The notes under the pieces are model-generated. The model was not told the origin of the DNA. It saw only the letters and a list, made by a program, of their open reading frames with translations, and ran no database searches. Below are positions 36,494 to 53,355 of a stretch of 64,000 bases of DNA, in pieces. This stretch comes from Methylococcales bacterium (lineage in GTDB: Bacteria > Pseudomonadota > Gammaproteobacteria > Methylococcales > Methylomonadaceae): positions 3,988-67,987 of the forward strand of contig JAQTOX010000001.1 of assembly GCA_028713055.1 (NCBI GenBank), written 5' to 3'. Every line of letters begins with the position of its first letter. The stretch's first letter is position 1. The translations under genes were made by a program, and so were the position numbers.

Positions 36494-36508
36494 CTTGTTG
36501 TCCTTGAG

Positions 36509-37030
36509 TTAATTAAAATTTTGCTGCATTTTTTGCCACACATTCGGTGTTAATGCGCCTATATATCTAGCACGAATGATACCGTTTCCATCTACCAGAT
36601 ACGTTTGTGGCAAACTTTGAATATCTAACGGCATTGCGCTTGCCATTGCACCATCAAACATAATTGCGTCAAACGGATTCCCTTGTTGTTTTAAATAGGT
36701 TTTGGCATTTTCTAAATCGTCTTGATAATCCACGCCATAAATTGTCACGCCTTCTTCTGAAAGTTGTTTTAACAATTCATGTTCCGCCCGACACGCCGCA
36801 CACCATGAAGCCCAAACATTTATCAACGCAGGCTTTTTAAAATCCGTGCTATTCAAAATGATGTCGGTGTTTTCTAGTGAAGGTAAATTCACCACAGGAA
36901 TTTTTTTACCGATTAAACGCGACGGACTTTTATTCGGGTCATACGTCAAACCGTAACCGTACATCACACCTAAAAGTGAAATTAAGATAATCGGCAACGC
37001 CAACAACAAACGCGGCTCAGGCTTTGTCAC
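36509..37030 (-). CDS. ccmG: Thiol:disulfide oxidoreductase CcmG/DsbE
   Basis: N-terminal TM anchor, the NVWASWCAACRAEH thioredoxin motif, and the LPQTYLVDGNGIIRARYIG motif. Its ATGA overlaps the upstream cytochrome gene. Confidence 0.9.
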   Translation of the reverse strand: MTKPEPRLLLALPIILISLLGVMYGYGLTYDPNKSPSRLIGKKIPVVNLPSLENTDIILNSTDFKKPALINVWASWCAACRAEHELLKQLSEEGVTIYGVDYQDDLENAKTYLKQQGNPFDAIMFDGAMASAMPLDIQSLPQTYLVDGNGIIRARYIGALTPNVWQKMQQNFN

Positions 37031-39939
37031 TGTAAATAATCCACAACTTGACGTACTTTTTCTTTATCGTGAAAGTATTTAAATTTTGGCAACGCATTCA
37101 TACCGTGACAATCGATGCAAAATGTCCCTTTCACGCCTTCAGTTCGTAAAAAACTATTGAGTGGCGAACCTTCCACATTCTCAATTTGCCCAAGTGACAA
37201 AATCGATTTTGGTTTTGATTGCAGCGCGTTTTGACGAATTTTCGCGCTCCAAAAATGTGGCTCGTGGCAGGTTTTACAAGCGATTTGTCCGAAATCGTCG
37301 ATTTTTTCTTTGGCATTTAACAGCGGCATAACTTTTTTATCTGACCGTAAAACCATGTCTTTGTGTGGATGATTAAAAAATCTCACAATTTTCTTTTCTG
37401 CAATGCCATTTTTTTGATGGCAGTTAATGCAAAGTTTATCTTCACGCAATTCGCTATGTTGCAATTCTCGGTCAGCAAAATCTTCTACAACCGATTTCAC
37501 CGAAAATAAATGCGGTGGATTTTTATCGCCTTTGTGCAAACTGTGACACGTGCCACAAACGCCACTTTGCGAAGGTTTTTCGTTAAATTGATTTGGTTTA
37601 TTTTTCGCCGTAATTCGCAAATCGTGGTCACTTCCAACTATCGCTTGTTTGCCTTGATGGCAATGTGAACAGAGTTCGCCATTTTGATTATTTTCAACTA
37701 ATGCGGGTGTATCGGTTTTGCCTTCATGCACCGAGTGACACGTTAAGCAACCAATTTCGCGCGTTTTTTTACCAGCGACAATTTCAACGTCATCGTCCAT
37801 TTTTACATTCACAGGATGGACGCCTTTTTGATCTGCATCGTCTTTGTCTTTTGCATGTTGACGTTGATGGCACGTTTTACAAAGTGATTCCGCGTCTTTA
37901 ATCCCTTTGTCGAGCAATGCCGTTTCTGGATTGCCCGAATGAACATTGTGGCAACTTTGACAGGTGACAAATTTCACTTCTTTGTCGTTTTTTTTCATGG
38001 GTTCATCAGGTTTTACGTTTGTTGGATGAATACCTTTGTGACGGGCATCGTCTTTATTTTTCGAGGCTTGTTTATCGTGGCAGGTTTCACAAAGCGCATC
38101 AGAAGTCAGATATTTTTTCTCAAGCAACGCTGAACCAAGTTTGCCATCATGAACAACGTGACAGGTTTGACAACTGACAAACTCAACAGTTTTGCCATCT
38201 TTTTGCATTGGTTTCTGATGTTTTTTTGGATCGGGTTTGATATTGACCGGATGTACGCCTTTTTTATGTGCGTCTTTTTCATTTTCGGAACTCTGCCGTT
38301 CGTGACATTCCAAACATAACGATGCTTTTTCATTTTCCAAAACAGTCAACGCGCCATTATCAAAACCGCCGTGAATTTGGTGACACGTTTGGCAAAGCAT
38401 TTCGTTTTGATTTCCTAAAACACCGCCATTTTTTAGTAACGAATCAGGTAACCCGTGTTGTTGTAATTTTGCCTCTGTTGCAAAACCAAGCGCGTTTTTT
38501 TCCGGCGGCAAGGCTAATTTAATGGCTAACGGATGATTCACACCGCGATTTTTGGCTTCTTTTTCACGGGTATTTTTACCTTTAGATTCATGACATTTTT
38601 CGCACAAATCGCCGTTTTTATTTGGCACACGCAGCCACGCATTGCCATGTTCTTTGTAAAGCGTTTCGTTCTCCAACATTTCACCCCCCTTTGAAAGGGG
38701 GGCTAGGGGGGATTTAGTGTGTGGCGTGTGGCAACTCGCACAATTCAAGTTGTTATGTTCGCCGTGAGGAAAATCCTTTGGTAATTTATCGGTGCGTTTT
38801 TCAACGAAACGTTCTTTTTTTAATTTTTCATCGTCATAAATTGTTGAATGTTGCGCTTTTGTGCCGATTCGCAAACGTGAATCCACAATTGCGCCGTTAT
38901 GACAGCTATAACACATCAAAAATGAACCATCAGGCAAAACGCCATTTTTGTCGGGTTGCGCCGTTTCTTTAACCCACGATAAATGACACGCTAAACAATT
39001 TTTTTGGGAAAGCTCAATTGAAACAGAATTATTTTTAGCAAGTTGTGAAAATTGTGGATTGATTGAAAATTCGACAATTTGATTGCCTAACGTTTCAGCA
39101 AGAAAAAGTTTATTGTCGCGCCATGCCAAGGAAGTCGGTGATTGTAAAACCATTGTTTTGCCGTTGTTATCAGTTAATTCTCCCAATGCTTCGCCATTTT
39201 TGAAGACTTTAATCGTTCCAAAATAACTGTCACTCACAAACAGCAAATCATTTTTTAGGTCGATTGCAATGCCATTTGGACGAAATAACGCCGTTTTGTT
39301 TGTACCGAATTTGCCAATCGTCGAAAAGAATCGCCCGTTTTTATCAAACTGTTGAATGCGTGAATTCATAATATCGACAACATAAAGATAACCGTCGCGG
39401 TCAAACGCCATTTGATACGGATATTGAAATTCATCCTCCATTTCGCCACGTTTTCCAAAGCACGGTAATGCTGAGTTTTTAACTAAATCAAAACGACAAA
39501 TTCTATGATTGGCGCGATCTGACCAATAAATTACATCTTCATAAACTGCAATCGCGACAGGTTCGGGCAAATTTTTGCTTTCTGCTGTTTGCGAAACATC
39601 GATTTTTTTGGTGAGTTTGCCCAAATTATCAACGCTCGTTAGTTCACGTTTTAACGGATTTGCGAGCCACCACCCATTTTTATAAGCAAAAACACTTAAT
39701 GCCGCGCCGTGGTTATCAATCAGATTTGCCGATTCACCAAGATGCAAACCCGAATTATCCAAAAACACCATTTTTTCTGCTGAAACCGCAACACCAACTG
39801 GTTTTTGCAAATTCGCCTCTAAAACACGTTGTGCTGTAATTTCTACCGCCCACGCATTCAAGGCGATAAAAAATAAATAGAACGCTAAAAATAGGCGATG
39901 GTTAACGTAACATTTCACGAATAGTAATCCGTTGGTCAT
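37027..39939 (-). CDS. NHL-repeat beta-propeller fused to a 16-haem c-type cytochrome (970 aa; an alternative GTG start at 39918 gives MKCYVNHRLFL...)
   Basis: N-terminal ~300 aa carry NHL repeats (YVVDIMNSRIQQFDKNGRF, LFVSDSYFGTIKVF). There are 16 CxxCH motifs counted by eye, and repeated CxxCH...KD(D)A..KGVHP.N(V/I)K units. Confidence 0.9.
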   Translation of the reverse strand: MTNGLLFVKCYVNHRLFLAFYLFFIALNAWAVEITAQRVLEANLQKPVGVAVSAEKMVFLDNSGLHLGESANLIDNHGAALSVFAYKNGWWLANPLKRELTSVDNLGKLTKKIDVSQTAESKNLPEPVAIAVYEDVIYWSDRANHRICRFDLVKNSALPCFGKRGEMEDEFQYPYQMAFDRDGYLYVVDIMNSRIQQFDKNGRFFSTIGKFGTNKTALFRPNGIAIDLKNDLLFVSDSYFGTIKVFKNGEALGELTDNNGKTMVLQSPTSLAWRDNKLFLAETLGNQIVEFSINPQFSQLAKNNSVSIELSQKNCLACHLSWVKETAQPDKNGVLPDGSFLMCYSCHNGAIVDSRLRIGTKAQHSTIYDDEKLKKERFVEKRTDKLPKDFPHGEHNNLNCASCHTPHTKSPLAPLSKGGEMLENETLYKEHGNAWLRVPNKNGDLCEKCHESKGKNTREKEAKNRGVNHPLAIKLALPPEKNALGFATEAKLQQHGLPDSLLKNGGVLGNQNEMLCQTCHQIHGGFDNGALTVLENEKASLCLECHERQSSENEKDAHKKGVHPVNIKPDPKKHQKPMQKDGKTVEFVSCQTCHVVHDGKLGSALLEKKYLTSDALCETCHDKQASKNKDDARHKGIHPTNVKPDEPMKKNDKEVKFVTCQSCHNVHSGNPETALLDKGIKDAESLCKTCHQRQHAKDKDDADQKGVHPVNVKMDDDVEIVAGKKTREIGCLTCHSVHEGKTDTPALVENNQNGELCSHCHQGKQAIVGSDHDLRITAKNKPNQFNEKPSQSGVCGTCHSLHKGDKNPPHLFSVKSVVEDFADRELQHSELREDKLCINCHQKNGIAEKKIVRFFNHPHKDMVLRSDKKVMPLLNAKEKIDDFGQIACKTCHEPHFWSAKIRQNALQSKPKSILSLGQIENVEGSPLNSFLRTEGVKGTFCIDCHGMNALPKFKYFHDKEKVRQVVDYLQ
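38679..38718. repeat. Half-copy (single arm) of the 80-nt palindromic element, in-frame inside the NHL cytochrome gene
   Basis: tcacccccctttgaaaggggggctaggggggattt matches the right arm of the copies at 43918-43997 and 47091-47170. It is translated as KSPLAPLSKGGE. Confidence 0.7.
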
Positions 39940-40687
39940 CGTTTTTATAATGTTCTAAAAAGCGTGGAATGATGTGCGTGGTAATCGCTTGAACTTGTTC
40001 TGAAGTTGCACCCAATTTGGACAAATCGAGTTTCGATTTTTTATCATTGTGGCATTCTTGGCAAGGCGTTCCTTGATGTATTTGATCGGTTTTTTGCCAA
40101 TTCATCGGCGCGTGAATTTTTGCGTGCAACGTCACCTTTTCTGAATCATTCGCGTGTTTCCATTGTTCTTCGATTTGATTTGAAAACTCATCACTTTTCA
40201 ACAAGAAAATCCGTACATTATTTAAAAATGGCCCGATTTTAGGATTTGTCAAACGTTGATTTTCGTTATCGATATTTTTGACAATTCGCAATAAATTCTG
40301 TCCTAAAACGGGCTGCTGTTTTTCCATATCAAACCACTGATAAGTAAATTTTTTATTTTCATAATGACACGTTTCACACGCAATAAATCGAACGTGCATA
40401 TTATTAAACGTGCGTGTTCTCAATGCCTTTTGATGTGGTAACGGAGAATGGCATGTTTGGCAAAAACTTTGTGGCGCGGTTTCGAGTTCACCCGTTTGTT
40501 TATGAAACGGTGGAATTACGAATTTTTCTTTAATCTCAATGTCTTTGTGTTCACGCACAGATTTTGCTGATAACTCAACCGCTTTTTGAGTAACTGACGC
40601 ATTTTCGATTTGTTGTTGGTGCAACGGAACATCTGCGGCAAAAGCCGATTTAACGATGAATAAAAATAATAAAAAATAAATTTTCAT
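39902..40687 (-). CDS. Trihaem c-type cytochrome (261 aa), secreted
   Basis: Signal peptide MKIYFLLFLFIVKSAFA and the motifs CQTCH, CETCH and CQECH. Confidence 0.85.
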   Translation of the reverse strand: MKIYFLLFLFIVKSAFAADVPLHQQQIENASVTQKAVELSAKSVREHKDIEIKEKFVIPPFHKQTGELETAPQSFCQTCHSPLPHQKALRTRTFNNMHVRFIACETCHYENKKFTYQWFDMEKQQPVLGQNLLRIVKNIDNENQRLTNPKIGPFLNNVRIFLLKSDEFSNQIEEQWKHANDSEKVTLHAKIHAPMNWQKTDQIHQGTPCQECHNDKKSKLDLSKLGATSEQVQAITTHIIPRFLEHYKNDDQRITIREMLR

Positions 40688-41970
40688 GATTTATCCTCAT
40701 CGTTTTTGGCTTTGGCGAATCGCTTTTTAATTTTCACCCACAAGCCTTCTTTCTTTTTAGGTTTTGAACCGATGATGATGCGTTGAAATTTCTCCGCGCC
40801 CAAAATTGAATTATTGTTGTTTTTGTTCAATTTGCTAGCATCACCAAAAATGCTCCAGGCGATATTTCCAAGCAAAAACACAATGGCAAATGAACCTAAA
40901 ATTGCTGCCAGTTTGTACCAAATCGATAATGTTTTAAACGTTGCAAAGTCGGGTTTTAAAACTTCATTTACTTTTGTTTCGACACCTAACCCAAGTGTTT
41001 GCACACCGTGCATTTCTGAATTTAAAAAGCCTTTGTTAGCCACGCTTTTTGAATAATCTTTATGGCAGTTCGATTGTCCACAAGTTTGCGCTAAATGTGC
41101 GGGATTTACCGACGAATCTACGTTTTCATCTCGTTTAATGCCATGATGTAAACCAGTTGGCGCGTGACATTCAACGCATGAGGCACCTACTAAATTTTCA
41201 TCAGCTAATAATCGTCCGTGTAAGGTTTTGTTATAACTTTCAGTCGAATGAATAAACGCCAAACTCACGGCTTTTTTTTCTTTTGTTTGGGAATCGTCTT
41301 GTTCAATTTTTGCCATTTTTTCAATATTGCCATGACAATCGATACACAATTTATTTGAAACATTTTTGTTCAAATGATTGCCAATATAACGGCGCAAAAT
41401 GTGACCGCTAAATTGATTTCGCCACACATCACCCTCGTGACAAGTGCCGCATTCTGCATCATTGTGAGAAAACTCTTTTTTGAATGCGTCCATTTGCGAT
41501 GCGGCAATGTACGGCGCGTTATCGTGACAACGCCGACACGAAGGCAAGGCAGAATCGGTGTCTTCTTTGATTCGATTTCCCGCCGCAAAATCTTTGCTTA
41601 AACCTTTTCCGTGTGCGGAACTTTCAAATTCTTTGGCAATATCTTTGTGTGTGAATGCCTTGCCATTGGAAGGTTCTTTGACATGACAGGTTTCGCCACA
41701 ATCGACCAAACCATCTTTTTCTTCGTGCGGATAATCAGTGATTTTTCGATGACAATCTTTGCACGGAACAGAACCATGCAACGAACCGTAATAATCGGAT
41801 TTCAAAATCGAAGCCGAACGAATTTGCCCTTGCTTATCGACATATTTCAAATCAGGCAAACCGTGACACGAAAAACAACCATCTGGATCAGGTTGGCGTT
41901 TATCGGCAAAAGTTAGATTGCAAAAAATCAGCAGCAACGCAAAGAAAAAGAATTTAAAACACTTCATCAA
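40684..41970 (-). CDS. Multihaem c-type cytochrome (6 CxxCH + CX3CH + CX4CH) with a C-terminal transmembrane anchor
   Basis: Signal peptide. Motifs CFSCH, CKDCH, CRRCH, CGTCH, CIDCH and CVECH, plus CGETCH (41683-41700) and CGQSNCH (41062-41082). TM helix LSIWYKLAAILGSFAIVFLLGNIAWSIF, then a Lys-rich tail. Confidence 0.85.
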   Translation of the reverse strand: MMKCFKFFFFALLLIFCNLTFADKRQPDPDGCFSCHGLPDLKYVDKQGQIRSASILKSDYYGSLHGSVPCKDCHRKITDYPHEEKDGLVDCGETCHVKEPSNGKAFTHKDIAKEFESSAHGKGLSKDFAAGNRIKEDTDSALPSCRRCHDNAPYIAASQMDAFKKEFSHNDAECGTCHEGDVWRNQFSGHILRRYIGNHLNKNVSNKLCIDCHGNIEKMAKIEQDDSQTKEKKAVSLAFIHSTESYNKTLHGRLLADENLVGASCVECHAPTGLHHGIKRDENVDSSVNPAHLAQTCGQSNCHKDYSKSVANKGFLNSEMHGVQTLGLGVETKVNEVLKPDFATFKTLSIWYKLAAILGSFAIVFLLGNIAWSIFGDASKLNKNNNNSILGAEKFQRIIIGSKPKKKEGLWVKIKKRFAKAKNDEDKS

Positions 41971-43019
41971 TGCACAGCCGTCGCAATTGTTATCATTGTT
42001 AAAAACCCCAACAGCAACGTCGCGTTAATGACTCTTGTCCATGAAATAGTTTGAACAGGCGTTACTTTTGGTTCAAAACGTGGTTTAAAGGTAATCACTT
42101 GCCAATCGGGATCGGGGAAAATTTCTGTACCTTTTTTAACACGCTTCGGTTCTTTGTGACGCGAAGCTGTGGTCCATTCGATTGCGTTCCAATCACACAC
42201 GTCAACACATTCGTGACAATCCATGCACGATGATTGTTCGACAGTGGCGACTTTATCAATCATTTTGATCGCGCCACACATACAATTTCGCGCACAAACA
42301 TTGCAACCTGTACAACGTTCTTTGGCAACGCGAATGCGGTGTGTGCTGCGAAAACGTGAGCCAAAACTGTTCACAACACCGTCGATTGCGCCAATCGGAC
42401 ACATAAATTGGCAATAAGCACGACCTTTGCTTGAGAAAAATCCAAGCAATAAAAGCAACGATAAATTCACTAAACCTACCGCTGAAAAAATAAACGCTAA
42501 ACCACCCGCGCCGCCTGACATCGCTTCGACTAAACGCGGTACAGTCACAAAATTACATAATGTACACGCACTCACACCAATGGCAGGTAAAACAATTAAA
42601 TATGTTCCCAAATAGCTGTAGCGAATTTGAAATTGCGGCAACCAACGGTATTCGATTTTCCATCGGTCATTTAATAAACGGCTGACCAACTCGCTAAATC
42701 CACCGACAGGACATAAAAAACTACACCAAATCCGTCCAAAAAATAATGTCGTTAGCAAAATCAATCCAAACGCAATCACGCCAATCATTGCCGCTGAAAC
42801 GTGCGTAGCAAAATCATCGAGCGACATATTTGGAAAATATAAATAAAACCGTCGCATACACAAACGCCCACATAAATCGCTATTGCCTGCGAGTTTAGGC
42901 AATATCGCCAACGGCGTTAAAAATACAATGCAAGAAACAAAAATCGTCGTGTAACGAAAACGTTGAACTTTTGGGACTTCGCGCCAACGTTGTAAAGTTG
43001 TTTTAAATGGATTCTTCAT
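41967..43019 (-). CDS. NapH/MauN/NosR-type membrane polyferredoxin (4Fe-4S binding integral membrane protein)
   Basis: Two CX3CP motifs (WCSFLCPVGG, YCQFMCPIGA) in TM-flanking loops. Two ferredoxin clusters, CTGCNVCARNC and CMDCHECVDVC. Several TM helices, including an extra C-terminal one. Confidence 0.8.
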   Translation of the reverse strand: MKNPFKTTLQRWREVPKVQRFRYTTIFVSCIVFLTPLAILPKLAGNSDLCGRLCMRRFYLYFPNMSLDDFATHVSAAMIGVIAFGLILLTTLFFGRIWCSFLCPVGGFSELVSRLLNDRWKIEYRWLPQFQIRYSYLGTYLIVLPAIGVSACTLCNFVTVPRLVEAMSGGAGGLAFIFSAVGLVNLSLLLLLGFFSSKGRAYCQFMCPIGAIDGVVNSFGSRFRSTHRIRVAKERCTGCNVCARNCMCGAIKMIDKVATVEQSSCMDCHECVDVCDWNAIEWTTASRHKEPKRVKKGTEIFPDPDWQVITFKPRFEPKVTPVQTISWTRVINATLLLGFLTMITIATAVH

Positions 43020-43022
43020 CGT

Positions 43023-44009
43023 TTAATTCTCAAACTCATGACAACTCAAACATAACGTGCCGTCTTTTGCTGGCAAGCGTAATAAAACTTCATTTTTCAG
43101 GCGTTGATATGGCGGCAAAGTAGTCGCTAATTTTTCTAAACGGTCGAGCTTATCCGCGTCAATAACTTCGCTCCAACTGTGTTTTTCATATTCCACGCCT
43201 TTTTTAATATCGCCATCGATTTGTTTGCTAGCAGGATTTTTTTCACCTAAAACACCTTTTGCGTGTGGCGAATGGCACGTTAAACAAAGCACTTCATCAT
43301 TTTCCGAAAGCGGCAAATGAACACCTTGCTCGGTTTCTATTTTTTGCAAACGCGCTTTCATATTTCGTGCTGAACTTTTCGATTGTTCTAACGTTTTAAG
43401 GTTCGCATCGGTATGTTCAACCGCGTTGAAATGCGGCGTTTTTAAATGGCAACCCAAACACACTTTTTCAACAGGTAAACGCAATCTGGCTTCAACTAAC
43501 GGACGCAATTTGTCGCGCTGTTCGTTGATTTCACTGTGACAAAATAAACAGTTTTCTTTTTTAATCGTACTGTCATCATTCAGCATCAAATGAATGTTTG
43601 GGCGTTCATGGGCTTTTTCATCGTGACAGTTCGCACAAAATGTTTCTAATTTTTTATAACCGTTTTTGCGTAAAAAATCAGGTGCATTCTTATCAATTTT
43701 GTCGTAAGGCGTTTCAGCGATTTTTTCTAAACCGTGGCACGTCTTACAACCGATTTTTCGCCCTTCTTTTAAAACAAATTCAGCAGGTGGGTGCATTTCG
43801 TCTAACAATTTAATATCTACCGCGTGATGCAAATCGGGCAAATGTTTCGATTGTTTATACGATTGCGTTTGCCAATCGGTCGATTCGGCGGCAAAAGGCG
43901 TTGTGCAAATTAACCATAAAACAAATCCTCCAACCCCCTTCAAAAAGGAGGCTTTTTCTTTTTCCCCTTGAAAAGGGGGGCAGGGGGGATTTGCTTTAAA
44001 AACTCTCAT
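43023..44009 (-). CDS. Hexahaem c-type cytochrome (328 aa); the N-terminus is encoded by the palindromic element
   Basis: CKTCH, CANCH, CLFCH, CLGCH, CLTCH and CLSCH. Signal-like GVGGFVLWLICTTPFAAES. A possible internal TTG start gives MKGVGGF... Confidence 0.85.
   Translation of the reverse strand: MRVFKANPPCPPFQGEKEKASFLKGVGGFVLWLICTTPFAAESTDWQTQSYKQSKHLPDLHHAVDIKLLDEMHPPAEFVLKEGRKIGCKTCHGLEKIAETPYDKIDKNAPDFLRKNGYKKLETFCANCHDEKAHERPNIHLMLNDDSTIKKENCLFCHSEINEQRDKLRPLVEARLRLPVEKVCLGCHLKTPHFNAVEHTDANLKTLEQSKSSARNMKARLQKIETEQGVHLPLSENDEVLCLTCHSPHAKGVLGEKNPASKQIDGDIKKGVEYEKHSWSEVIDADKLDRLEKLATTLPPYQRLKNEVLLRLPAKDGTLCLSCHEFEN
43918..43997. repeat. 80-nt palindromic (MITE/RPE-like) element, full copy
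   Basis: aaaacaaatcctccaacccccttcaaaaaggagg...ccccttgaaaaggggggcaggggggatttgcttt. The arms are inverted repeats of each other, and each arm contains its own C5/G5 mini-hairpin. Confidence 0.8.
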
Positions 44010-44995
44010 AATCCTTTCTGCACGCGCTCGCCGTGATTATGACAAGTCACGCAATCCGAACCATTGTTAAAATGCACGCCGCTTAAACCGTTGCCCGTGT
44101 CGATTTCACCACCATCAGAAACCGTTTTCATGTTGTGGCACAACGCACAAAATTGGCTGTAATTCGTGTTGTTTTCGAGTAATTTCACGCTATACGGTTT
44201 GTTACGCATTTTAGAATCAAGAAAAATCGCGCCATTGCGTGAATCATCAATAAGTAAATTCGCATCTGTTGTACCGTGCATGGTGTGACAATCGACACAA
44301 TTAACAATCGTTTTGTACGCATAACCATCGCGCAGACCACTATATAAACCATTGCCCGTGCCTTCTGAAACGCCGTGTTTATCAATTTTCCAATAATCAT
44401 CTTCGGCGGCAATCGATTGATTTCTTCTGCCTGCATGAATAATTGGATAGTTCGTTTGCTGATGATTTCGATTGTGGCAACGCAAACAGAATTCGTTTTG
44501 GTCTTGGTAAGGCAACGGAGTTTCCGTTGGTTTATTAGGTTTGTCGCTAAACATCGTCAAATCAATATCTAACTCAAATTTACCATTCATATTCGAGGCA
44601 TCATGACAAACAACGCATTGCCGACTGGTCGTTGGCAAATCTTTCGACGCATCAAAATCATGCCGATGCTTGCCTGTTCGCATTGGATTCAAAGGCATAT
44701 CTTGCGGATTATGACAAATCAAACATTGCGGCTCGGTTTTTTTCGCACCGTTATCACCGTGACAAGCTGTGCAAGTAGCGAATTTCTTTTTATCTACAAT
44801 TGTTTTTATTTTCGGTACGGTTTCATGCAAACGTTGTAGCGCGTGACAACTTTGGCAATTTGCTTTGCCCCACGCGCTACCCATTCCATGCGACGGTGTT
44901 AAAAGCAAACTACCATTTTGCGAAATCGTTTTGGCGTGAATCGGCATCACGAAAAACAAGAAAATTAAAAAGGGCAGATGTTTAACGTGTCGCAT
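44006..44995 (-). CDS. Octahaem c-type cytochrome (start taken at Met 44995; the track ORF extends to 45049)
   Basis: Eight CxxCH motifs (CQSCH, CTACH, CLICH, CVVCH, CLRCH, CVDCH, CALCH, CVTCH). Signal peptide MRHVKHLPFLIFLFFVMPIHA. Confidence 0.85.
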   Translation of the reverse strand: MRHVKHLPFLIFLFFVMPIHAKTISQNGSLLLTPSHGMGSAWGKANCQSCHALQRLHETVPKIKTIVDKKKFATCTACHGDNGAKKTEPQCLICHNPQDMPLNPMRTGKHRHDFDASKDLPTTSRQCVVCHDASNMNGKFELDIDLTMFSDKPNKPTETPLPYQDQNEFCLRCHNRNHQQTNYPIIHAGRRNQSIAAEDDYWKIDKHGVSEGTGNGLYSGLRDGYAYKTIVNCVDCHTMHGTTDANLLIDDSRNGAIFLDSKMRNKPYSVKLLENNTNYSQFCALCHNMKTVSDGGEIDTGNGLSGVHFNNGSDCVTCHNHGERVQKGL

Positions 44996-45575
44996 GACAG
45001 TCACTGCAATAATTTTCATTGTGGCAACGTCCGCAACGTGCCGAATCAAAACGTGCTTCTAAACCGTGCAACGTGCGATAACCTAACGGATGATAACCCG
45101 CGCCCGACGTGTCACGGCGCAAATGGCAATCGGTACAAAAGTTCACATCTAAATGACACGTTTGGCAGTATTTTTCATTGCCTCGCGCGGCTTCGTTGTG
45201 ATGGTTTTTGTAATCAAATTTATGGTCAGGCGGTTGAATGCGCTCTTTATCGGTGTGACAAACGTCGCAACGCCACGGCGCACGTTGTTCATCCACATGG
45301 CAATTATGGCAAACCGCTTTGAGTGATTCGTTAGCAATGACGGTTAAATTTTTGAGTTTTTTAATATCAACGACATCGGTTTTTGCGTAAGTATGACAAA
45401 GCAAACAACTATCACCTTCTTCTTTCATCACGTCTAAATGTGCGTTGTGCGGATAATAAACGTCGGATTTTTGATTTCGTTTTTCCCACCACGAATTGTC
45501 AGTTTTGGCATCAATCGCAAACACTGAACTCGTCAAAACGAACAATAAACACATTGTGATAATTCGGTAACTCAT
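44982..45575 (-). CDS. Heptahaem c-type cytochrome, very haem-dense (197 aa), periplasmic
   Basis: Signal peptide MSYRIITMCLLFVLTSSVFA. Motifs CLLCH, CHNCH, CDVCH, CQTCH, CTDCH, CGRCH and CSDCH. Encoded directly downstream of the beta-barrel gene. Confidence 0.9.
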   Translation of the reverse strand: MSYRIITMCLLFVLTSSVFAIDAKTDNSWWEKRNQKSDVYYPHNAHLDVMKEEGDSCLLCHTYAKTDVVDIKKLKNLTVIANESLKAVCHNCHVDEQRAPWRCDVCHTDKERIQPPDHKFDYKNHHNEAARGNEKYCQTCHLDVNFCTDCHLRRDTSGAGYHPLGYRTLHGLEARFDSARCGRCHNENYCSDCHATR

Positions 45576-47176
45576 GGTTTTTTCGCCTGAAAATAATCGA
45601 AATAATAAGTGAGTTGCATCGAGCCTAGATATTCATTGGTGAGTTGTGAATTGTTGATATAACTGGCTTTCAACGCCACAACCCAATTGTTTTTAATCAT
45701 CGTTTGCCATTCTGTTTCAACGCCTGTGGCAAAATTTTCGGGATACAAATTTTTCTTTTCATCGCGAAACGCTAGATTCACGCTGTAACGATTTTTACTA
45801 TCGAGTGCGTGGGTATGCGAAACATAAAAACTCGTCGCGTATTCGCCACTGTTCAATTCCAAATAATCGACTGTACCTTGCCAAGTGACATTCGGTTTAA
45901 ATTGGTAACTCACGCTGGCATTCGCGCCATAACCGTTATAACCCGTTTTGCGATCGGCAACTTGAACGCCTGCCGAATAACGCAAATCACTGGAAAAACG
46001 ATGCTCCACCGAACCGCGCCAAATTTGTTGTTCACCCAGCGCGTAAGCCGAATAAAAACGATCTCGAAAGGTGACATAAGGTTGAACAGGTCGATAGGCT
46101 TCGTAATAATTTCGCAACCGCACATTTTTAAAAACATCCCACCATGAATCGACAAACACATTTTCAAGGCGATTTTTTTCACTGGCGTAAGAACCTTTAA
46201 CGTAAATTTCAAACGGCTTTTTTTCACCGAGTAAATTACCCGTTAAATGCGTTGCGGCGTTATAGCGATATGTCGTCAACGTGCGTTTTCTAAGTGTTTG
46301 CGTTGGCATACCTAATACGTCGAAATTCGCATTTGTGGCAGGTTGATTTTCAACAGTTGTCGCTTCAATCGGTTGCGGCGTTTCAATCGCGTCGAAATTG
46401 TTATTGACCAAACTTTCATTAAATGTTGGCGAAAGTAACGTGTCTTCTGGATTGCTTGTGGTTTTTGGTGCTTCAACAACCGCGTTAGTATCAACATCTT
46501 TCACTTCTGTTTTAGGCGAAATTGGTTGAATTACATTTTGTAAAAATGTTTCGTTACGTTGAACCACTTGCATGCCAAAACGGAAATCAGTTTTTTCTAA
46601 TTTAAACCATGAGGTTGAAAAATTTGGAGAAAGATTTAACGCGCTTTCAATGCCTCCAACCAAATTACCGCGTAACGATTGAACGTGATCAACTTGCAAC
46701 GGTCGACCGCCATAAATCTCAAAACTCAACGGCGTTGAAACTTGATATTGTGCTGTTGCGCCATCAACTAAATACAAGCCTAAATTGTCGCTTTTTTCAA
46801 ACCGTCCACCGCGTAATGTCACGGGTAAAAAGTCAAAACTCTTTTCGGCATACGCCTGATAAAGCCGTTGTTTGTCGCGGTAAATATCGGTACTTAAACG
46901 ACTTACTGCGCTAATTTGTGCATTCAACTTTTGATTCGGATTGTTATAAACGAGTTGCCCCCAAACTTCACCCGTGTAATCACCATTTTGCATATCGTAG
47001 CGATTGTCGGTCTGCATTTTTGTACGTATTGAACCCCGCCAACTGTCGTTTTGGTCGGCGGCGAAAGTGTTTGTTGCCAATGCCGACAGCAAAGCAAATC
47101 CCCCAACCCCCTTCAAAAAGGGGGCTTTCTTATCTCTCCCCTTTGAAGGGGGGCGAGGGGGATGTGCTTTAATCAT
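45572..47176 (-). CDS. Outer-membrane beta-barrel protein (porin component; start taken at Met 47176, track ORF to 47224, possible TTG start inside the element)
   Basis: No Cys. Alternating hydrophobic/aromatic beta-strand pattern throughout (for example RYSAGVQVADRK, ANASVSYQF, WQGTVDYLEL, YATSFYVSHTHAL, RYSVNLAFRD, WVVALKASYIN, GSMQLTYYF). Signal-like GVGGFALLSALATNTFA-ADQ. One long P/T/N/E-rich loop. Confidence 0.75.
   Translation of the reverse strand: MIKAHPPRPPSKGRDKKAPFLKGVGGFALLSALATNTFAADQNDSWRGSIRTKMQTDNRYDMQNGDYTGEVWGQLVYNNPNQKLNAQISAVSRLSTDIYRDKQRLYQAYAEKSFDFLPVTLRGGRFEKSDNLGLYLVDGATAQYQVSTPLSFEIYGGRPLQVDHVQSLRGNLVGGIESALNLSPNFSTSWFKLEKTDFRFGMQVVQRNETFLQNVIQPISPKTEVKDVDTNAVVEAPKTTSNPEDTLLSPTFNESLVNNNFDAIETPQPIEATTVENQPATNANFDVLGMPTQTLRKRTLTTYRYNAATHLTGNLLGEKKPFEIYVKGSYASEKNRLENVFVDSWWDVFKNVRLRNYYEAYRPVQPYVTFRDRFYSAYALGEQQIWRGSVEHRFSSDLRYSAGVQVADRKTGYNGYGANASVSYQFKPNVTWQGTVDYLELNSGEYATSFYVSHTHALDSKNRYSVNLAFRDEKKNLYPENFATGVETEWQTMIKNNWVVALKASYINNSQLTNEYLGSMQLTYYFDYFQAKKP
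47091..47170. repeat. 80-nt palindromic (MITE/RPE-like) element, full copy
   Basis: aaagcaaatcccccaacccccttcaaaaaggggg...cccctttgaaggggggcgagggggatgtgcttt. It has the same length and architecture as the copy at 43918-43997. Confidence 0.8.
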
Positions 47177-47402
47177 CTTTAGTGCGGATTTCAAACGGTT
47201 CAAGCCCTTGCTTGCGTTGTTCACGGCGTTTTTTTAATGCCAAACCCGTGAACGTCGCCACTGCAATAATGCAACTTCCGCAACCTGCACACGTTCCAAT
47301 TTTCGGCACAGTGCAAGCCGTCGCTAATAATCCCTGACTCAATGCAACGCCCGAACCTGTGAGCCACGGCAATGATTGGGCGACTAAATCGGATGTTTTC
47401 AT
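47169..47402 (-). CDS. Small Cys-rich membrane protein (77 aa), unknown function
   Basis: Two hydrophobic segments flank CTVPKIGTCAGCGSC (CX8CX2CX2C), with a basic C-terminal tail. Its ATGA overlaps the upstream gene, and its stop lies in the palindromic element. Confidence 0.55.
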   Translation of the reverse strand: MKTSDLVAQSLPWLTGSGVALSQGLLATACTVPKIGTCAGCGSCIIAVATFTGLALKKRREQRKQGLEPFEIRTKDD

Positions 47403-50050
47403 TTTTTCAAATCCACTAAAACCGCACGTTCTGGCAATTGCGTCAGCGATAAAATAACGTAATTCGATTTAACAGCGATAATTTCAGCGGGAATGCGGGT
47501 TTTAGGTGGGTCAATAATGTTGCCGCTAACTAAATTTACCGCGAATAATCCCACTTCATTTGGCGCAGTCGCATAACCGTCGTAAGGTAATTTAACAAAC
47601 AACTTTTCTTTGCCAAGCGAGCAAATTAGCGCATCGTTTAAACAACGTGATTGAAAATAAAATACGGAACTTGAAACTTCACCTTGCGATAATGTGCTAA
47701 CTTTTTTATTTCCAACGAACGCAAAATCCATCCAATCTGAAGCGATAATTTCAAAACGATAATTCGGTAAAATAGCTTTATTTGCATTGGTGTAGTTTGC
47801 AGCCAGCCAGATATTTTTGACGTTGTCGCCTGTTAAATTATTCTTAAAAACAAAGGCTTTTCGAGTAAGTTGCGCGGCAAGTGTTGTTTTTACATCGGTA
47901 TCCAAATCCTTCAAAATATCATCTCGTGCCATGACTTGAAATTCGCCCGAAACGGCATTTATTTTGTTGCTTTGCAATTGTGAGGTAAATGGATTTAGTT
48001 TTGTTTCATACAAAACATCATCGATATTTTCGACAATTTTGCCGTCATCTGAGAGTTTGAAATATGGCATTGCTAATTTCACAACGCCTTCTTTAATCAG
48101 TTTTGGATACGCTGTTTTATCGTTTAATTCTGCGACCACACGAACATTGTTTTTGCCAAAAATTCCCGAGTCAGAAAGTGCCGAATTGATTGAACCGTTA
48201 CGTTTGCGTTCATGACAATCGGTGCAAGGCATCGTATCCGCGATAGGGCGCGTGTTGTGACTGATTAAATACTCATTCGTTTCAGTCCAAATCATTTGTG
48301 CATTGGGCTTTTGAAAACCTTTTGCTTTGAGCAAATCATCAAAACGTTTTTTCAGCTCTTTCACGTCTTGATAACTTTTTGGTTCGCTATCCACTCCGTT
48401 TGTAACTTCTAAACGTTCGGCTTGCGTTAAAACACGCTGATTTGTACTGTCTACCCAATAATAACGGCTCGCAGGATTGTACGGCATAATGCGCGACTTT
48501 CCATCTTCAGAGGGTCGATAACGAAAACGTGGTTTGAGTGGTTTATCTTGATATGCCAATTTATATGCCAATTTTGTGATATGGCACGTTTGACAGGCAA
48601 CGGAATTGAAATGCACTTGCACCGTTCTATCCAGTGTTCGTTCGGCATAACCCACCATATCGCCTCTATTCCGCCACAATTCACGATGGGCATCTAAAAT
48701 TGTCGCCAAACCCGAATGCGGCCATGCTGGTTTTTCAGGACTTCCGTAAGTTTGAACCCCGTGGCAATGCTCACATGACAATGGTTTAGGCTGATTATTC
48801 AAATCGCGACGCACATCTTCATCGGAAAATCCCGTTAAAAACTGATGATCCGCACTTAAATCCAGAGCTTTTTTGTAATAATTTTTTGCGTGACAGGCTT
48901 CGCAATTTTCAATCGAACGAACGGTGCCTTTTTCTGTCCACGATTTGCCTTTGTGAACATCGTCGCGCGTATCTACAACATTTGCGTCTACTTTTGCCGC
49001 GTCGCCAAAACCGTAAAAACCGCGTCGTTGTTCGCTAGTTGAATGACATAACATACAATTTTCGCTGGCTGGAAAACGCAACATAGGAATTTGTGCATCG
49101 CCGTTTGCGTCAAAAGCGGCTTCATCCCATTTCAAAACCGGTTCAGCATGTTCAGGTGTTTCAAGTGTGGCTAACGTTTGACCGTCTACGCTATCAGGCA
49201 ATAAATCTAAAAACGCAAAAATTGCCGAATTCGCATAACGAAACCAGCCGTTTTTGATAATTTGCACGTTGCGTTGTGTTTTCCATTCAGAAACGGGACG
49301 TTTGAACTTAGAAATATCCGCGTGGCAAGCCATACAGTCGGGTTCAATTACCCCGCTTTTTTGCCAATCCCATTGTTCAATTTTTTTGCCATTCCACTCG
49401 AAATAATCGCCGTCTAAAAAAGAAACTGCATTTTCAGGTTGTGAGTCGTAACGTTTTCCAACACGGTCTTTTTCAGCAAACCCCCCGCCAGTGTGACATT
49501 CTTCACAATTTTTAATCAAACCGACTGCGCCGTAGTCTAAAAAATCGGCTTCTTTCGTCGTCATTTTTTTACTTAACCACGAAGGATTATTGCCGTTTTG
49601 GCAACTGTAACCACCGAAATAAGCAGGTGAAGTCAGTGCTGCTAAACCACGACGAAGTCCAAATTTATCATCACTTTCATCGCGTCCCATTTCAAAGTGA
49701 TAAGCGTGACTAATTTTATCAATATCATGACAACCCGCTCCGCCACCACAACTGGTACGAGTGCTATAAGGTTTTTGGGAATCCAAAACGTGTTGCCCAG
49801 TTTCATCTAACAACGGAATTGCGGGATGGATTGTGGGGAAGTCGACGGTATTTCCAATTGCTGAATTTGTTGTGGCAACGACTGGCGGCATCATTGTCAC
49901 AGGCATCGTTATCGATGGTGTTGATATTGGCGCGATTTCATAGGTGGGCGTATATCCAGACAAATCTTCGCCATCGTCAGCCCACACATTTGAAAATGGA
50001 AATGCGAACAATAAAATTGCGAAAAAAAGTTGCTGAATGACGAAGTGCAT
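47399..50050 (-). CDS. Large multihaem c-type cytochrome (883 aa, 7 CxxCH + one CX5CH) with a non-haem C-terminal domain; first gene of the operon
   Basis: Signal peptide MHFVIQQLFFAILLFAFPFSNVWA and a Pro/Thr-rich linker. Motifs CEECH, CMACH, CMLCH, CEACH, CEHCH, CQTCH and CTDCH, plus CGGGAGCH at 49727-49750. The last ~270 aa lack haem motifs. Confidence 0.85.
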   Translation of the reverse strand: MHFVIQQLFFAILLFAFPFSNVWADDGEDLSGYTPTYEIAPISTPSITMPVTMMPPVVATTNSAIGNTVDFPTIHPAIPLLDETGQHVLDSQKPYSTRTSCGGGAGCHDIDKISHAYHFEMGRDESDDKFGLRRGLAALTSPAYFGGYSCQNGNNPSWLSKKMTTKEADFLDYGAVGLIKNCEECHTGGGFAEKDRVGKRYDSQPENAVSFLDGDYFEWNGKKIEQWDWQKSGVIEPDCMACHADISKFKRPVSEWKTQRNVQIIKNGWFRYANSAIFAFLDLLPDSVDGQTLATLETPEHAEPVLKWDEAAFDANGDAQIPMLRFPASENCMLCHSTSEQRRGFYGFGDAAKVDANVVDTRDDVHKGKSWTEKGTVRSIENCEACHAKNYYKKALDLSADHQFLTGFSDEDVRRDLNNQPKPLSCEHCHGVQTYGSPEKPAWPHSGLATILDAHRELWRNRGDMVGYAERTLDRTVQVHFNSVACQTCHITKLAYKLAYQDKPLKPRFRYRPSEDGKSRIMPYNPASRYYWVDSTNQRVLTQAERLEVTNGVDSEPKSYQDVKELKKRFDDLLKAKGFQKPNAQMIWTETNEYLISHNTRPIADTMPCTDCHERKRNGSINSALSDSGIFGKNNVRVVAELNDKTAYPKLIKEGVVKLAMPYFKLSDDGKIVENIDDVLYETKLNPFTSQLQSNKINAVSGEFQVMARDDILKDLDTDVKTTLAAQLTRKAFVFKNNLTGDNVKNIWLAANYTNANKAILPNYRFEIIASDWMDFAFVGNKKVSTLSQGEVSSSVFYFQSRCLNDALICSLGKEKLFVKLPYDGYATAPNEVGLFAVNLVSGNIIDPPKTRIPAEIIAVKSNYVILSLTQLPERAVLVDLKK

Positions 50051-50194: not shown

Positions 50195-50235
50195 GGCATA
50201 TCGCTTACTTGAAAAATAAAACTAGGCGATATACC
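50195..50235. promoter_or_regulatory. Imperfect inverted repeat (ggcatatcgc N20 ggcgatatacc) in the divergent intergenic region
   Basis: Paralogous to the perfect 12-bp inverted repeat at 53441-53483. It lies about 145 nt from the minus-operon start and about 160 nt from the 50395 start. Confidence 0.5.
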
Positions 50236-50394
50236 AGAATAACAAATTGTAAAGAGCAAAAAATACCAAAAATGCGACGTAATAAATTGAATTTAAAAGG
50301 CTATTTTCAAGGGCATAGTTATTGTTAGAAACCTAAATGTTACTAATTTTTAGTAGCGTTTTTACACAAAACTAATTTTAAAAAAGGAGGGTTT

Positions 50395-53355
50395 ATGCCC
50401 GATAGAAAAATTCAGACACATCGGCACAAGCGCAGATTAGGTTTAATCGCGTTTGCGCCGGTGATAGCCGTAATGGCAATCGCATCGCCGATGGTTCAAG
50501 CGGGTGTTGATGTAAAAGCTCCGACTTGCAAAATTCTTACGCCAAAAACGGGTGTCGTTTTTACTGCGAACAAAGACGTTTCATTTTCAGCGCAAGCTTC
50601 GTTAAAAGACCCAATAGCAAATCCGTTGAAATATGAATGGGATTTTTCTGGCGGGGTGATGGGCGAGTTAATTCCTGATTCTAATCCAGCCGTTTATAAA
50701 CGCCCTGACGGTTTAAAAACCACAGTGCAATTTGTCCGAGATAATGCGCGTTACACCGTACATTTCAGCGCAATGGATGCACAAAAACGCCGTTGCGAAT
50801 CTATTATTGAAGTCGTTGTCGGAACACCGCCAACAGGGTTGCCGGATGTATCGGCAATGGTTAAAGATTCACAGAAAAACGCGCCTAAAACTGGCAGTGA
50901 ACTGGCAGGAACTAAGAATGACATAGTTGTTTTGCCGTTTGAAGAATGGACATATCAAAATTCTAGCGATATGCGTTTGTTGTCTAATGGCTGGAGTTCA
51001 GCGTCACCGTTAGTAAATAATCTAAAATCGTATGCGTTTAAAAAAGACCGTTTACCCGTATTTTTAGATGACACCGCTGTAGAATTACGTTATTCCGCCG
51101 CATCAAATCCGGTTGATCCTGTCGGTAAAGATTCGATTAACACCACTAGTCAAAATTATCCATTAACTGCCAATTTGATTGATGCAAAAATTCAGAAAAC
51201 TGATATGTGGCAAATGCCACCTGCACGCACAGCGGCTGAAAAATCCAAGGATTATTTTGCTTGTTCATGGGCAATGACGGCTTATTGGGTTGCATACGGT
51301 TGCGGTGCATCTCAAGGATTGCCAACGGTTGACGAAGGTTATTTTAAAGCAAAAGTAGATAAAGCCACGGGTAAGGTAAGTCCTGATGATCAAAATAATC
51401 TTGAACACGGATTATTTATGCCAGGTAAAACCAAATCGTATGCAACAAATACGGCACAATCATTTTCACAATTTCAGGCAGATGAACAAGTATTTGCTGC
51501 GAATTTTTTACCCGTCACCGATATTGACGACAAAGGGCGCGTAAATCCTTTCCCTTTATGGCGCGTTGAAGCGGTTGATAAAGGATCACAAAAAGTGGTC
51601 GCAAAAACCGATGCTGTCACCAGCACCAGTAAAGACTTTAAGTGTCGTGAATGTCATGCAAAAGGAAAAATAGCTGCAAATCCAGATGCGCCGTACACAA
51701 AAGAAGCCTTCAATTCCAGTGCATACGGTAAGTTTGCGGAAAAACAAAAACCTACATCTGCTGACAAAATCTTAAGTAAACCCAAGTTTTTTAGCGTGGC
51801 TGATTCCAACGGCAAAGAAAACAGTTTATTCGATCAAGAATACGCTGCTGCCTTGAATTATTCGAGCATTCACCAGTTCTACGACAAAATTACTTTTCTC
51901 GACCAAATGTTAGATAAAGACGTGGATGATAAAGGTAAAGTGAACAGAGATACGCCCAGAGCCTGCTATGGTTGTCATGCCACCGCAATAAGTTTTACGC
52001 CGTTCAAAACGCCGTGGTGGGATGAAGAAGGTTTCGACAATAAAAACCCCGCTTATGCCCCTAGTTATTCAATTGCAATGCACCGTTTTCATGGTGAATT
52101 GCAATACAACGACAAAAAAACCGATATTGTCCGTGATAAAACAGGCAAATTTGTACGTTGGGATTGGAAAACGAAAGGCACGAATAATAGCGACAAAAGT
52201 TTATTTCCTGTTTTCGACAAAGAAGGCAAACAGCTTCCGATGGAAGATAACTGTTTGAAATGTCACAGCGGACATCGTGAACAGTTGTATCGTGACCGGA
52301 TGTACACCGCTGGCGTGAGTTGTTTTGATTGTCACGGCGATATGTTAGCAGTAGGTCAAGCCTTCCCTAAAAATTACCTCGATAACAAAGCAAAACTAGG
52401 TTCAACTGAACGTGATGATTATCGCGTGCCTTGGTACGACGAGCCTGATTGTGGTTCTTGCCATGTTGGTAATGCGAATATCGGTAACGATAAAAAGAAC
52501 GGTTTTTTCAGTGCAGGTGTCATGACAAAAGCATTTGATACGACTGATTTATCAGCAACGCCACGCCTTGCAGATAAAGAAAATCCTGACACGCAACGTT
52601 TTACTGCCGCGCCGATAGAAAATTATAAGACGAAGTTTGAAACGGATTTTTACTCTGGAGTCGATACCAAAACAGGCGATTTCCAAACTAAAAAAGTTGA
52701 TACCAAAGTTGATTCTGCTTTGTTTAGACAAGGTAAAGATAGACACGGTAACGTTGCATGCGCGGCGTGTCATGGTGCAGCTCATGCGGTTTGGCCAAAT
52801 CGGGATCCTAACGCAAATGACAACGTGACGGCGTTGCAATTGCAAGGTCACACAGGAACAATTTTGGAATGTAATGTTTGCCACAGCGCGGATTCGTTCA
52901 AAAATGAAGCTGATTTAGATGGCGGTCAATACAGTGGCGATGCAACTGTAGGAATTCTCGGTGGTCCTCATAATACACATCCAGTAAATGATCCGTATTG
53001 GTGGAAAGACTCACAATCTCCAGATGATGTGAACGTGAGTGATGGAAAAACCTATGGTGGTTGGCATAATAATTATGCCCAAAAAGCAGGTGCAAAAGAT
53101 GAAGATCAATGCGCGGCTTGTCATGGTAATGACCATAAGGGTACACGTTTATCAAAAACACCCGTGGATAGAACCTTTGATTTTAGTAGCTTTGATTTCG
53201 CTCGATTACAAAAAGCGGGTTTCAAAGCCAAAGTAATTAACGTTCCAGCGGGAACACCGATCGGTTGCGATACCTGTCATAGCATTAAAACCAGTTGTGT
53301 CAATTCGCCAGCGGGTAGCTCGTGTGGCGTTACTTCAGAAACAGTGACAAAGTAA
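50395..53355 (+). CDS. Giant multihaem c-type cytochrome with an N-terminal PKD-like domain (986 aa, 9 CxxCH)
   Basis: Signal peptide. PKD-like YEWDFSGG region. Motifs CRECH, CYGCH, CLKCH, CFDCH, CGSCH, CAACH, CNVCH, CAACH and CDTCH. RBS aggaggg. Confidence 0.9.
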   Translation: MPDRKIQTHRHKRRLGLIAFAPVIAVMAIASPMVQAGVDVKAPTCKILTPKTGVVFTANKDVSFSAQASLKDPIANPLKYEWDFSGGVMGELIPDSNPAVYKRPDGLKTTVQFVRDNARYTVHFSAMDAQKRRCESIIEVVVGTPPTGLPDVSAMVKDSQKNAPKTGSELAGTKNDIVVLPFEEWTYQNSSDMRLLSNGWSSASPLVNNLKSYAFKKDRLPVFLDDTAVELRYSAASNPVDPVGKDSINTTSQNYPLTANLIDAKIQKTDMWQMPPARTAAEKSKDYFACSWAMTAYWVAYGCGASQGLPTVDEGYFKAKVDKATGKVSPDDQNNLEHGLFMPGKTKSYATNTAQSFSQFQADEQVFAANFLPVTDIDDKGRVNPFPLWRVEAVDKGSQKVVAKTDAVTSTSKDFKCRECHAKGKIAANPDAPYTKEAFNSSAYGKFAEKQKPTSADKILSKPKFFSVADSNGKENSLFDQEYAAALNYSSIHQFYDKITFLDQMLDKDVDDKGKVNRDTPRACYGCHATAISFTPFKTPWWDEEGFDNKNPAYAPSYSIAMHRFHGELQYNDKKTDIVRDKTGKFVRWDWKTKGTNNSDKSLFPVFDKEGKQLPMEDNCLKCHSGHREQLYRDRMYTAGVSCFDCHGDMLAVGQAFPKNYLDNKAKLGSTERDDYRVPWYDEPDCGSCHVGNANIGNDKKNGFFSAGVMTKAFDTTDLSATPRLADKENPDTQRFTAAPIENYKTKFETDFYSGVDTKTGDFQTKKVDTKVDSALFRQGKDRHGNVACAACHGAAHAVWPNRDPNANDNVTALQLQGHTGTILECNVCHSADSFKNEADLDGGQYSGDATVGILGGPHNTHPVNDPYWWKDSQSPDDVNVSDGKTYGGWHNNYAQKAGAKDEDQCAACHGNDHKGTRLSKTPVDRTFDFSSFDFARLQKAGFKAKVINVPAGTPIGCDTCHSIKTSCVNSPAGSSCGVTSETVTK

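Follow-up and report, generated by a model that had tools for sequence, protein, structure and literature searches.

In-frame palindromic repeats are textbook knowledge mainly for Rickettsia. Rickettsia palindromic elements (RPEs) are short palindromic non-coding repeats found in genes of this genus (Ogata et al. 2000, as summarised in PMC10969869). The 2024 review that gives this summary mentions in-frame fusions for RPE, ERIC, QMITE1 and other elements, RPEs being the extreme case (PMC10969869); intragenic repetitive extragenic palindromes (REPs) are also on record (PMC3733652). The repeat described here was found in a 64,000-nt stretch of a Methylococcales bacterium (contig JAQTOX010000001.1, positions 3,988 to 67,987), referred to below as the window; other loci are cited by their handles (L122, L125, etc.). 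Two full copies and one solo arm lie within three genes of a single multihaem-cytochrome operon. On comparison with orthologues, the three copies are recent, tolerated in-frame insertions of a putative mobile repeat, as with RPEs of Rickettsia: close orthologues lack the inserts, and individual protein clusters of 90% identity contain both filled and empty alleles.

The two 80-nt palindromes and the half-copy claimed in the initial annotation were all found, on the minus strand: copy A (43918-43997), made of two inverted arms of ~35 nt and a purine-rich spacer, copy B (47091-47170), and a solo arm (38684-38715). A repeat search gave 43918-43999 and 47091-47172 as an 82-nt pair of 80% identity, as well as a three-member arm family that includes 38687-38715. 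A first arm pattern matched five times in the window (0.00 expected from dinucleotide shuffles) and a second one also five times (0.44 expected), though one of the latter matches, at 7690, is unrelated. With an nhmmer profile made from the arms found at other loci, only five arms were detected in the 64 kb, two per full copy and one at 38.7 kb. On the sense strand, the first half of a full copy consists of AAAGCA(A/C)ATCCCCC, 2-3 nt, a C-run-loop-G-run hairpin and a purine-rich spacer of 12-14 nt; the second half consists of a hairpin, 2 nt and GG(G/A)GGATTTG(C/T)TTT. Arm: AAAGCAAATCCCCC, 2-3 nt and a CCCCC-loop-GGGGG hairpin. The outer ends, AAAGCAAATCCCCC and GGGGGATTTGCTTT, are terminal inverted repeats and form with the inner hairpins arms of ~35-47 nt. 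Copies of the element have 80-84 nt, their coding capacity is limited to short read-through peptides, and stop codons are absent from three or four of the six reading frames. RNA folding of the 80-mer, proposed as a check in the initial annotation, was predicted to give a long hairpin on the sense strand of each full copy, -35.6 kcal/mol (z -2.5) for one and -48.5 kcal/mol (z -4.6) for the other. The arms of copy A show decay. All copies had been described as read in the same frame: this holds for the common ...SKGG part and fails for the 5′ side of the solo arm (read as SPLAPLSKGG), which is one base out of register with copy B, the register being restored by differences in run length.

Searches for a described family gave the following results. 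Rfam: no family between 36.0 and 50.5 kb, the best hit being a miRNA model (E 0.61) far under its gathering score. GTAG and CGTC tags or their complements: absent from both full copies. Pfam: no family for the element-encoded peptides. A profile of the element peptide, which is too short for a census, gave one match among 1.84 billion representative proteins, a spurious ORF over tandem repeats. BLAST of the element against plasmids and phages gave no useful match, probably owing to the low-complexity filter. A literature search by sequence strings (AAATCCCCC, GGGGCTAGGGG, etc.) returned just eukaryotic primers and papers on NF-kB or G-quadruplexes.

Copy A lies in the gene of a hexahaem c-type cytochrome (43023-44009, minus strand; 328 aa, 6 CxxCH). 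Its six orthologues (77-89% identity; 293-306 aa, the 293-aa one being C-terminally truncated) start with MKIRFFLLLIC... (MKIRFFLLLICSLAFADE) and lack K5-G28, whereas the window protein starts with MRVF-[KANPPCPPFQGEKEKASFLKGVGG]-FVLWLICTTPFAAE. Copy A is read as K5-G28 plus F29-V30 of this protein; its net insert, given by DNA alignment with the empty orthologous sites of L122 and L125, is 72 nt (24 codons). Copy B is read as K3-A28 of a putative outer-membrane beta-barrel protein (45572-47176, minus strand; 534 aa from the ATG). Barrel orthologues of 77-86% identity have the N-terminus MTKRFCLFLF (MTKRFCLFLFVVSTTNAFATD) or MIKRFSLFLF; the protein of the window and those of three other lineages read MIK-[AHPPRPPSKG.DKKAPFLKGVGG]-FA.... 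At the barrel site, L122 and L177 carry the insert and L125 lacks it. The solo arm lies in the gene of an NHL-repeat 16-haem cytochrome (37027-39939, minus strand; 970 aa, 16 CxxCH), which reads HTK-SPLAPLSKGGEMLE-NETLY where most orthologues read HTK-DAPQQT-NETLY (HTKDAPQQTNETLY), without the arm. The peptides given in the initial annotation were reproduced by translation, and its haem-motif counts (6 and 16 CxxCH) are correct. In L122, the barrel site is filled and the hexahaem site is empty; another gene of the operon, the fourth with an insertion, contains an extra in-frame solo arm (TPLFEGGQGGFA, against KPTETPLP in the window). With this fourth site of the relatives (L122:12636-12670), the operon has at least four independent insertion sites.

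For both the barrel and the NHL sites, individual clusters of proteins with 90% identity include filled as well as empty alleles, and in a neighbour-joining tree of the mature barrel protein the two kinds of alleles interleave. The empty alleles keep host bases that are missing from the filled ones; the interleaving is thus better explained by exchange of alleles within the population than by excision. Independent assemblies from ENA, NCBI, JGI and Logan data (at least 14 contigs) contain the filled barrel allele. The RPE-like in-frame insertion of a palindromic repeat put forward in the initial annotation is therefore supported, the close orthologues being wholly devoid of the corresponding residues.

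The element belongs to a dispersed family. A scan of metagenome contigs with an exact one-arm pattern gave 51 loci, mostly of 40-45% GC, which include 80-84-nt elements, versions of ~150 nt with the same 39-47-nt ends, and many solo arms. In-frame copies are located, according to Pfam, between the CN_hydrolase and NAD_synthase domains of NadE, between the AA_kinase and GNAT domains of ArgA and between the two domains of MurG; other copies lie between or beside Pfam domains of a GT9 heptosyltransferase and of a MOFRL-family protein, and one lies at the N-terminus of an ABC ATPase (MSK-ANPPRPLQKGG-DTLF...). The NadE orthologues of L130 (1628-1711) and L142 carry a full element at the same interdomain site in opposite orientations, both in frame. 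Arms are found in open frames of at least 300 codons in 13 of 44 cases (~30%), versus 48% of random positions, i.e. a mild depletion. Elements of ~150 nt with the same arms are found directly upstream of a tyrosine-integrase gene on four contigs (L128, L136, L164, L165).

The window element is probably a small non-coding palindromic mobile repeat, inserted recently and carried as a tolerated passenger, the ancestral ATGs being most likely still used. Its target would have been a multihaem-cytochrome/porin operon of Methylococcales in which overlaps between genes leave no room for intergenic DNA. The copies would persist because their net length is a multiple of three, because most of their frames are stop-free and because extra residues are harmless where they sit: two would separate the n-region from the h-region in Sec-type signal peptides that are later removed by cleavage, and one would lie in a loop between haem motifs. 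Ribosomes would still initiate at the ancestral ATGs, in coupling with the upstream stops, the n-region being longer by ~20-24 residues. The best candidate for the mobilising enzyme is a DUF559 nuclease (Vsr-like, PD-(D/E)XK), because repeats of this architecture are found on both sides of genes of that family.

Several observations weigh against this reading. No clean target-site duplication was found: in all four filled/empty comparisons (window 43918-44003, 47091-47173 and 38684-38725; L122:12630-12670), the insert replaces 8-24 nt of host sequence, so that classical cut-and-paste transposition is not demonstrated. Transposons do not usually replace bases in this way, which hints at copying through repair or at in-frame trimming after insertion. 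The duplications were sought from two filled/empty pairs and ~27 ends; TT-AAAGC...GCTTT-AA flanks, which are TTAA- or TA-like, are present in L130, L138 and L142 and absent from window copy B and L144. No transposase or RAYT gene recurs within 2.5 kb of the arms (~170 loci, ~1 Mb); the recurrent neighbours are generic families (UvrA/ABC, sigma-54 activators, PAS kinases), a repeat-rich adhesin-like protein and an integrase. Initiation at a TTG within the elements would give signal peptides of ancestral length (21-22 residues, versus 19-22 in orthologues). All the window copies lie in one operon, and both full copies lie at cistron junctions in one orientation; this clustering, siting and shared orientation could hint at function rather than neutrality.

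Such a function could be that of an exapted intercistronic RNA element, whose hairpins at the junctions would tune mRNA stability or translational coupling, like E. coli REP/BIME, and would be retained for it; this is unlikely. Both full copies start 0-9 nt from the upstream stop codon in the same orientation (77-aa/barrel and 347-aa/hexahaem junctions), they are predicted to form strong hairpins (-36 and -48.5 kcal/mol, z -2.5 and -4.6), and all the window copies and four distinct sites among relatives are in this operon. No intrinsic terminator was detected on the sense strand: terminator-like hairpins followed by a T-run match solely on the plus strand, antisense to the operon, which also agrees with a role in the transcript. 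However, presence and absence of the element vary inside 90%-identity clusters and interleave on the tree, the hexahaem site of L122 is empty though its barrel site is filled, and the arms of copy A are decaying. Members of the family are found anywhere they are tolerated and in both orientations, as for the NadE site, whose element is opposite in L130 and L142.

The passenger reading, which is preferred to that of an RNA element, also bears on where translation starts. It is fairly likely that the ancestral ATGs are still in use and that the elements lengthen the n-region without donating a start. The initial annotation noted that no in-frame ATG exists between the element and the h-region; this is true, but an in-frame ATG is found directly upstream of each full copy. 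The retained ATG of the hexahaem gene (44007-44009, minus strand) forms an ATGA overlap with the TGA (44006-44008) of the upstream 347-aa multihaem gene; that of the barrel gene (47174-47176, minus strand) forms a ATGATTAA overlap with the stop of the 77-aa gene. These ATGs sit 3-4 codons upstream of the elements and align with the initiator Met of the orthologues (MK/MR..., MIK/MTK...), and the empty sites have equivalent coupled junctions, ATGA for the hexahaem gene and ATGATTAG for the barrel gene. The barrel insertion falls after ATGATTA, so that the first A of the element rebuilds the stop of the 77-aa Cys-rich gene (47169-47402, minus strand), which is TAG in the empty allele and TAA in the filled one; as previously noted, this stop involves the element, whose first two bases are also the last two of the TAA at 47169-47171. 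In all the filled alleles sequenced, the ATG frame has stayed open even though the homopolymer runs are prone to indels. The n-region, longer by ~20-24 residues, has a net charge of about +2 to +5. The claim that the element supplies the N-terminus or the translation start is not supported, the ancestral ATGs being retained; what the element does contribute is the ~20-24 residues of the n-region, among them part of the stretch that precedes the h-region. The signal peptides would still work, with cleavage after FAA, before E in one protein and before D in the other.

Alternatively, the element could have acted as a start-codon donor, the ancestral start being unused and a TTG in the element yielding MKGVGGF... 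with its lysine n-region. An in-frame TTG is indeed present in both copies (minus strand; 43941-43943 in copy A, giving MKGVGGFVLWLIC..., and 47114-47116 in copy B, giving MKGVGGFALLSAL...), and the resulting signal peptides have the length of those of orthologues, as given above. Moreover, the ~80 nt of a canonical copy with any duplication cannot be divided by three, so that insertion would initially frameshift the ATG frame. Nevertheless, this explanation is improbable, slightly more so than the RNA element. No filled allele seen has a closed ATG frame, and the several homopolymer indels of L177 add up to multiples of three on both sides of the TTG, +3 nt upstream and -12 nt downstream of it; the TTG product of this variant would begin with MGFALL, devoid of any basic residue. 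In allele P0278, the TTG of the copy B position is replaced by TGG (L to W, APFWKG) and the ATG frame is kept. The purine-rich stretch proposed upstream of the TTG was not found: CCTCC or CCCCC occupies this position, nothing that resembles a Shine-Dalgarno sequence lies 5-10 nt upstream, and the stem of the predicted hairpin includes the TTG as paired bases.

Finally, ordinary conserved coding sequence that is palindromic by chance, or an assembly artefact, has a negligible probability: the ORFs are intact, and nothing further favours it, whereas orthologues carrying the residues as ordinary coding sequence, the contrary case named in the initial annotation, are the opposite of what the comparison found and this refutes it, the arm also occurs in unrelated genes and intergenic DNA, and the filled barrel allele comes from the independent assemblies mentioned above.

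Repeats with the architecture of the window arms flank DUF559 genes. DUF559 is classed with Vsr and a group I intron homing endonuclease (PMC3424549). At four element-bearing loci, on Bacteroidota and ~41% GC contigs, a DUF559 (PF04480) gene directly abuts the arms; in L165 (150-1054) and L136 (1167-1845), it is framed by a 155-nt element in direct copies, with the arms of the window as its ends. It is the only gene found flanked by these arms. In the reverse test, tblastn of the DUF559 protein against plasmid records gave 31 records, and flanks were examined at 12 loci, from Cyanobacteriota, Deinococcota and Alpha-, Beta- and Gammaproteobacteria. All 12 loci, plasmid or chromosomal, have such repeats within ~150 nt of the DUF559 gene, usually as inverted arms on both sides. 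Their architecture is as follows: outer C-run, TAG/CAA/CAG, then C-rich stem, loop and G-rich stem. In Deinococcus psychrotolerans, the sole two such hairpins in 16 kb bracket the DUF559 gene (protein WP_124874550.1) as terminal inverted repeats, each at least 45 nt long; the spacer between paaD and paaZ is filled by this ~0.5-kb unit. Deinococcus sp. QL22 lacks it at the same junction, where the spacer is too diverged to define the ends. For DUF559 relatives from IMG/VR, repeats flank the gene at 10 of 12 loci, and 23 of the 37 such hairpins of these 12 loci are in the 11% of sequence adjoining it. The DUF559 gene ycjD of E. coli K-12 is followed by repeats of the same architecture; the repeat adjacent to ycjD is a dispersed family, present in 5426/5426 complete E. 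coli genomes at a median of 16 places per genome. The DUF559 loci bracketed by C-run/G-run palindromes include, with L136 and L165, L226:7917-8416, L223, L219, L215-L217 and L227:4041-4407. No DUF559 gene was found in the 64-kb window. A literature search found no link between DUF559 and flanking repeats, a boxC/ycjD search giving nothing relevant.

This arrangement suggests a REPtron-like one, with an enzyme gene flanked by its own repeats and the 80-mers as its internally deleted derivatives. Tentatively, and with more doubt than belief, the 80-mers could be internally deleted forms of ~0.5-kb arm-DUF559-arm units, the DUF559 nucleases, YcjD of E. coli included, creating or spreading a class of C-run/G-run palindromic repeats that spans phyla. 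The 80-mers would then be mobilised in trans by a DUF559 nuclease. This would also account for insertions that replace host bases and give no target duplication, an outcome expected of break-and-repair copying and not of transposition.

The arm motif (outer C-run, 2-5 nt, C-run/G-run hairpin) is found beyond this family. A looser arm pattern gave at least 120 loci from more than a dozen phyla among species-representative genomes, for an estimated chance expectation of roughly 50 matches. The phyla among the matches listed include Desulfobacterota, Chloroflexota, Nitrospinota, Bacteroidota, Cyanobacteriota, Myxococcota, Elusimicrobiota and several classes of Pseudomonadota. Among the matches listed, the G-run that completes the hairpin, not demanded by the pattern, is present in 113/127, and the inverted outer repeat closes 29/127; on viral contigs of IMG/VR, the same G-run completion was found in 34/41 matches. 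An alignment of 16 full elements, which come from several phyla, has an invariant AAATCC...GGATTT frame and a three-helix consensus (outer helix and two inner hairpins), with little covariation because the sequence itself is conserved. Arms of the phylum-wide and viral sets are mainly intergenic. The arm motif is carried by 35 viral-contig loci, phages thus being a possible route between phyla; one 19-kb viral contig, IMGVR_UViG_3300002821_000286 (L182, L200), has five copies of it. A role of the single arm as a hairpin sequestering the Shine-Dalgarno sequence was rejected: a long ORF starts at most 16 nt from the G-run in 9.6% of cases, versus 15% of controls.

The host locus is a run of multihaem cytochromes with a Fer4 protein and a putative outer-membrane barrel; the cytochrome region has all its genes on the minus strand, with overlaps of 4 or 8 nt between most start and stop codons. 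MDD5227208.1 ('MAG: cytochrome c3 family protein [Methylococcales bacterium]') has the same sequence as the NHL 16-haem protein, and homologues of all three host proteins are found in Methylococcales, Methylococcaceae, Methylomonas and Methylococcus. The 77-aa Cys-rich protein (…CTVPKIGTCAGCGSCIIAV…) has no Pfam match; its position, between the barrel and an 883-aa cytochrome, is conserved in every related operon observed. All five arms of the window are clustered in one operon (36500-50050) and the other ~50 kb has none. Upstream of the cytochrome locus, a 3113-aa ORF (15524-24865) has tape-measure (TMP_3) and SLT transglycosylase domains and is followed, up to ~32 kb, by ORFs of which several are without Pfam matches; this part resembles a prophage or a phage-tail-like region. 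At 50195-53355 and 53442-57387 are encoded two large multihaem/PKD paralogues of 986 and 1251 aa; their upstream regions are duplicated, with a common 76-nt stretch over the ribosome-binding site and start (repeat families D4, D13, D14).

In-frame palindromic insertion is already known; what is new here is the signal-peptide sites, the segregating alleles, the phylum-spanning arm and the association with DUF559. The phenomenon known from RPEs is now found in free-living methanotrophs, with alleles still segregating and housekeeping enzymes among the hosts. Cleavable signal peptides are a safe landing zone in an operon without intergenic space. The element generates spurious peptides and ORFs, and gene callers disagree on starts, the called lengths being 501-530 aa within one 90%-identity cluster. 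DUF559 genes lying between such repeats, from E. coli to Deinococcus and cyanobacteria, give this widespread domain a testable function and provide a candidate origin for dispersed bacterial repeats without known mobilising enzyme. If DUF559 proteins do create or spread these repeats, this would be a second, non-HUH kind of 'REPtron'.

Among described systems, MITEs (miniature transposable elements with inverted repeats: Neisseria Correia, Coxiella QMITE1, intragenic ERIC; PMC10969869, PMC5896051) are likewise small, with terminal inverted repeats and no coding capacity. Like them, the window element has size variants with common ends (80 to ~155 nt), operon insertions and in-frame fusions, many dispersed copies (51 metagenome loci) and presence/absence polymorphism in 90%-identity clusters; the TT-AAAGC...GCTTT-AA flanks of several copies resemble TA or TTAA targets. 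It differs from them in that no target-site duplication could be demonstrated at the two filled/empty pairs, host bases being replaced there, and in that no parent insertion sequence with a transposase was found among the ~170 loci. A literature search for MITEs in methanotrophs gave nothing relevant. With REP/REPIN-RAYT systems, the element shares two inverted units with their own short hairpins, a short spacer and a longer hairpin, the existence of singlets and doublets, some intragenic copies, and an enzyme gene flanked by its own repeats (the candidate here being DUF559). Here, in contrast, the GTAG or CGTC tag is lacking, no RAYT gene was found in the loci examined, and the flanked gene encodes a PD-(D/E)XK Vsr-like nuclease, not an HUH/Y1 enzyme. 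The repeat adjacent to ycjD, presumably the E. coli 'Box C' first noted near envM/fabI, has the same succession of C-rich stem, loop, G-rich stem, TTA and outer G-run, is dispersed and adjoins a DUF559 gene; its primary sequence is different (CCCTCTCCC/GGGAGAGGG versus CCCCC/GGGGG here). With RPEs, the likeness lies in in-frame palindromes in unrelated housekeeping genes, in stop-free frames, in sites that tolerate extra residues (interdomain according to Pfam) and in a high intragenic fraction, ~30% of arms being in long ORFs here and roughly 40% of RPE-1 copies being intragenic. The differences are the host (free-living Methylococcales versus an obligate intracellular alphaproteobacterium), the size (80-84 nt versus ~100-150 nt), the G/C-run arms in a 41% GC genome, the location of two copies in cleavable signal peptides and the frequency of solo arms. 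Considering its Methylococcales host, the window element would be an analogue of RPEs rather than a member of them.

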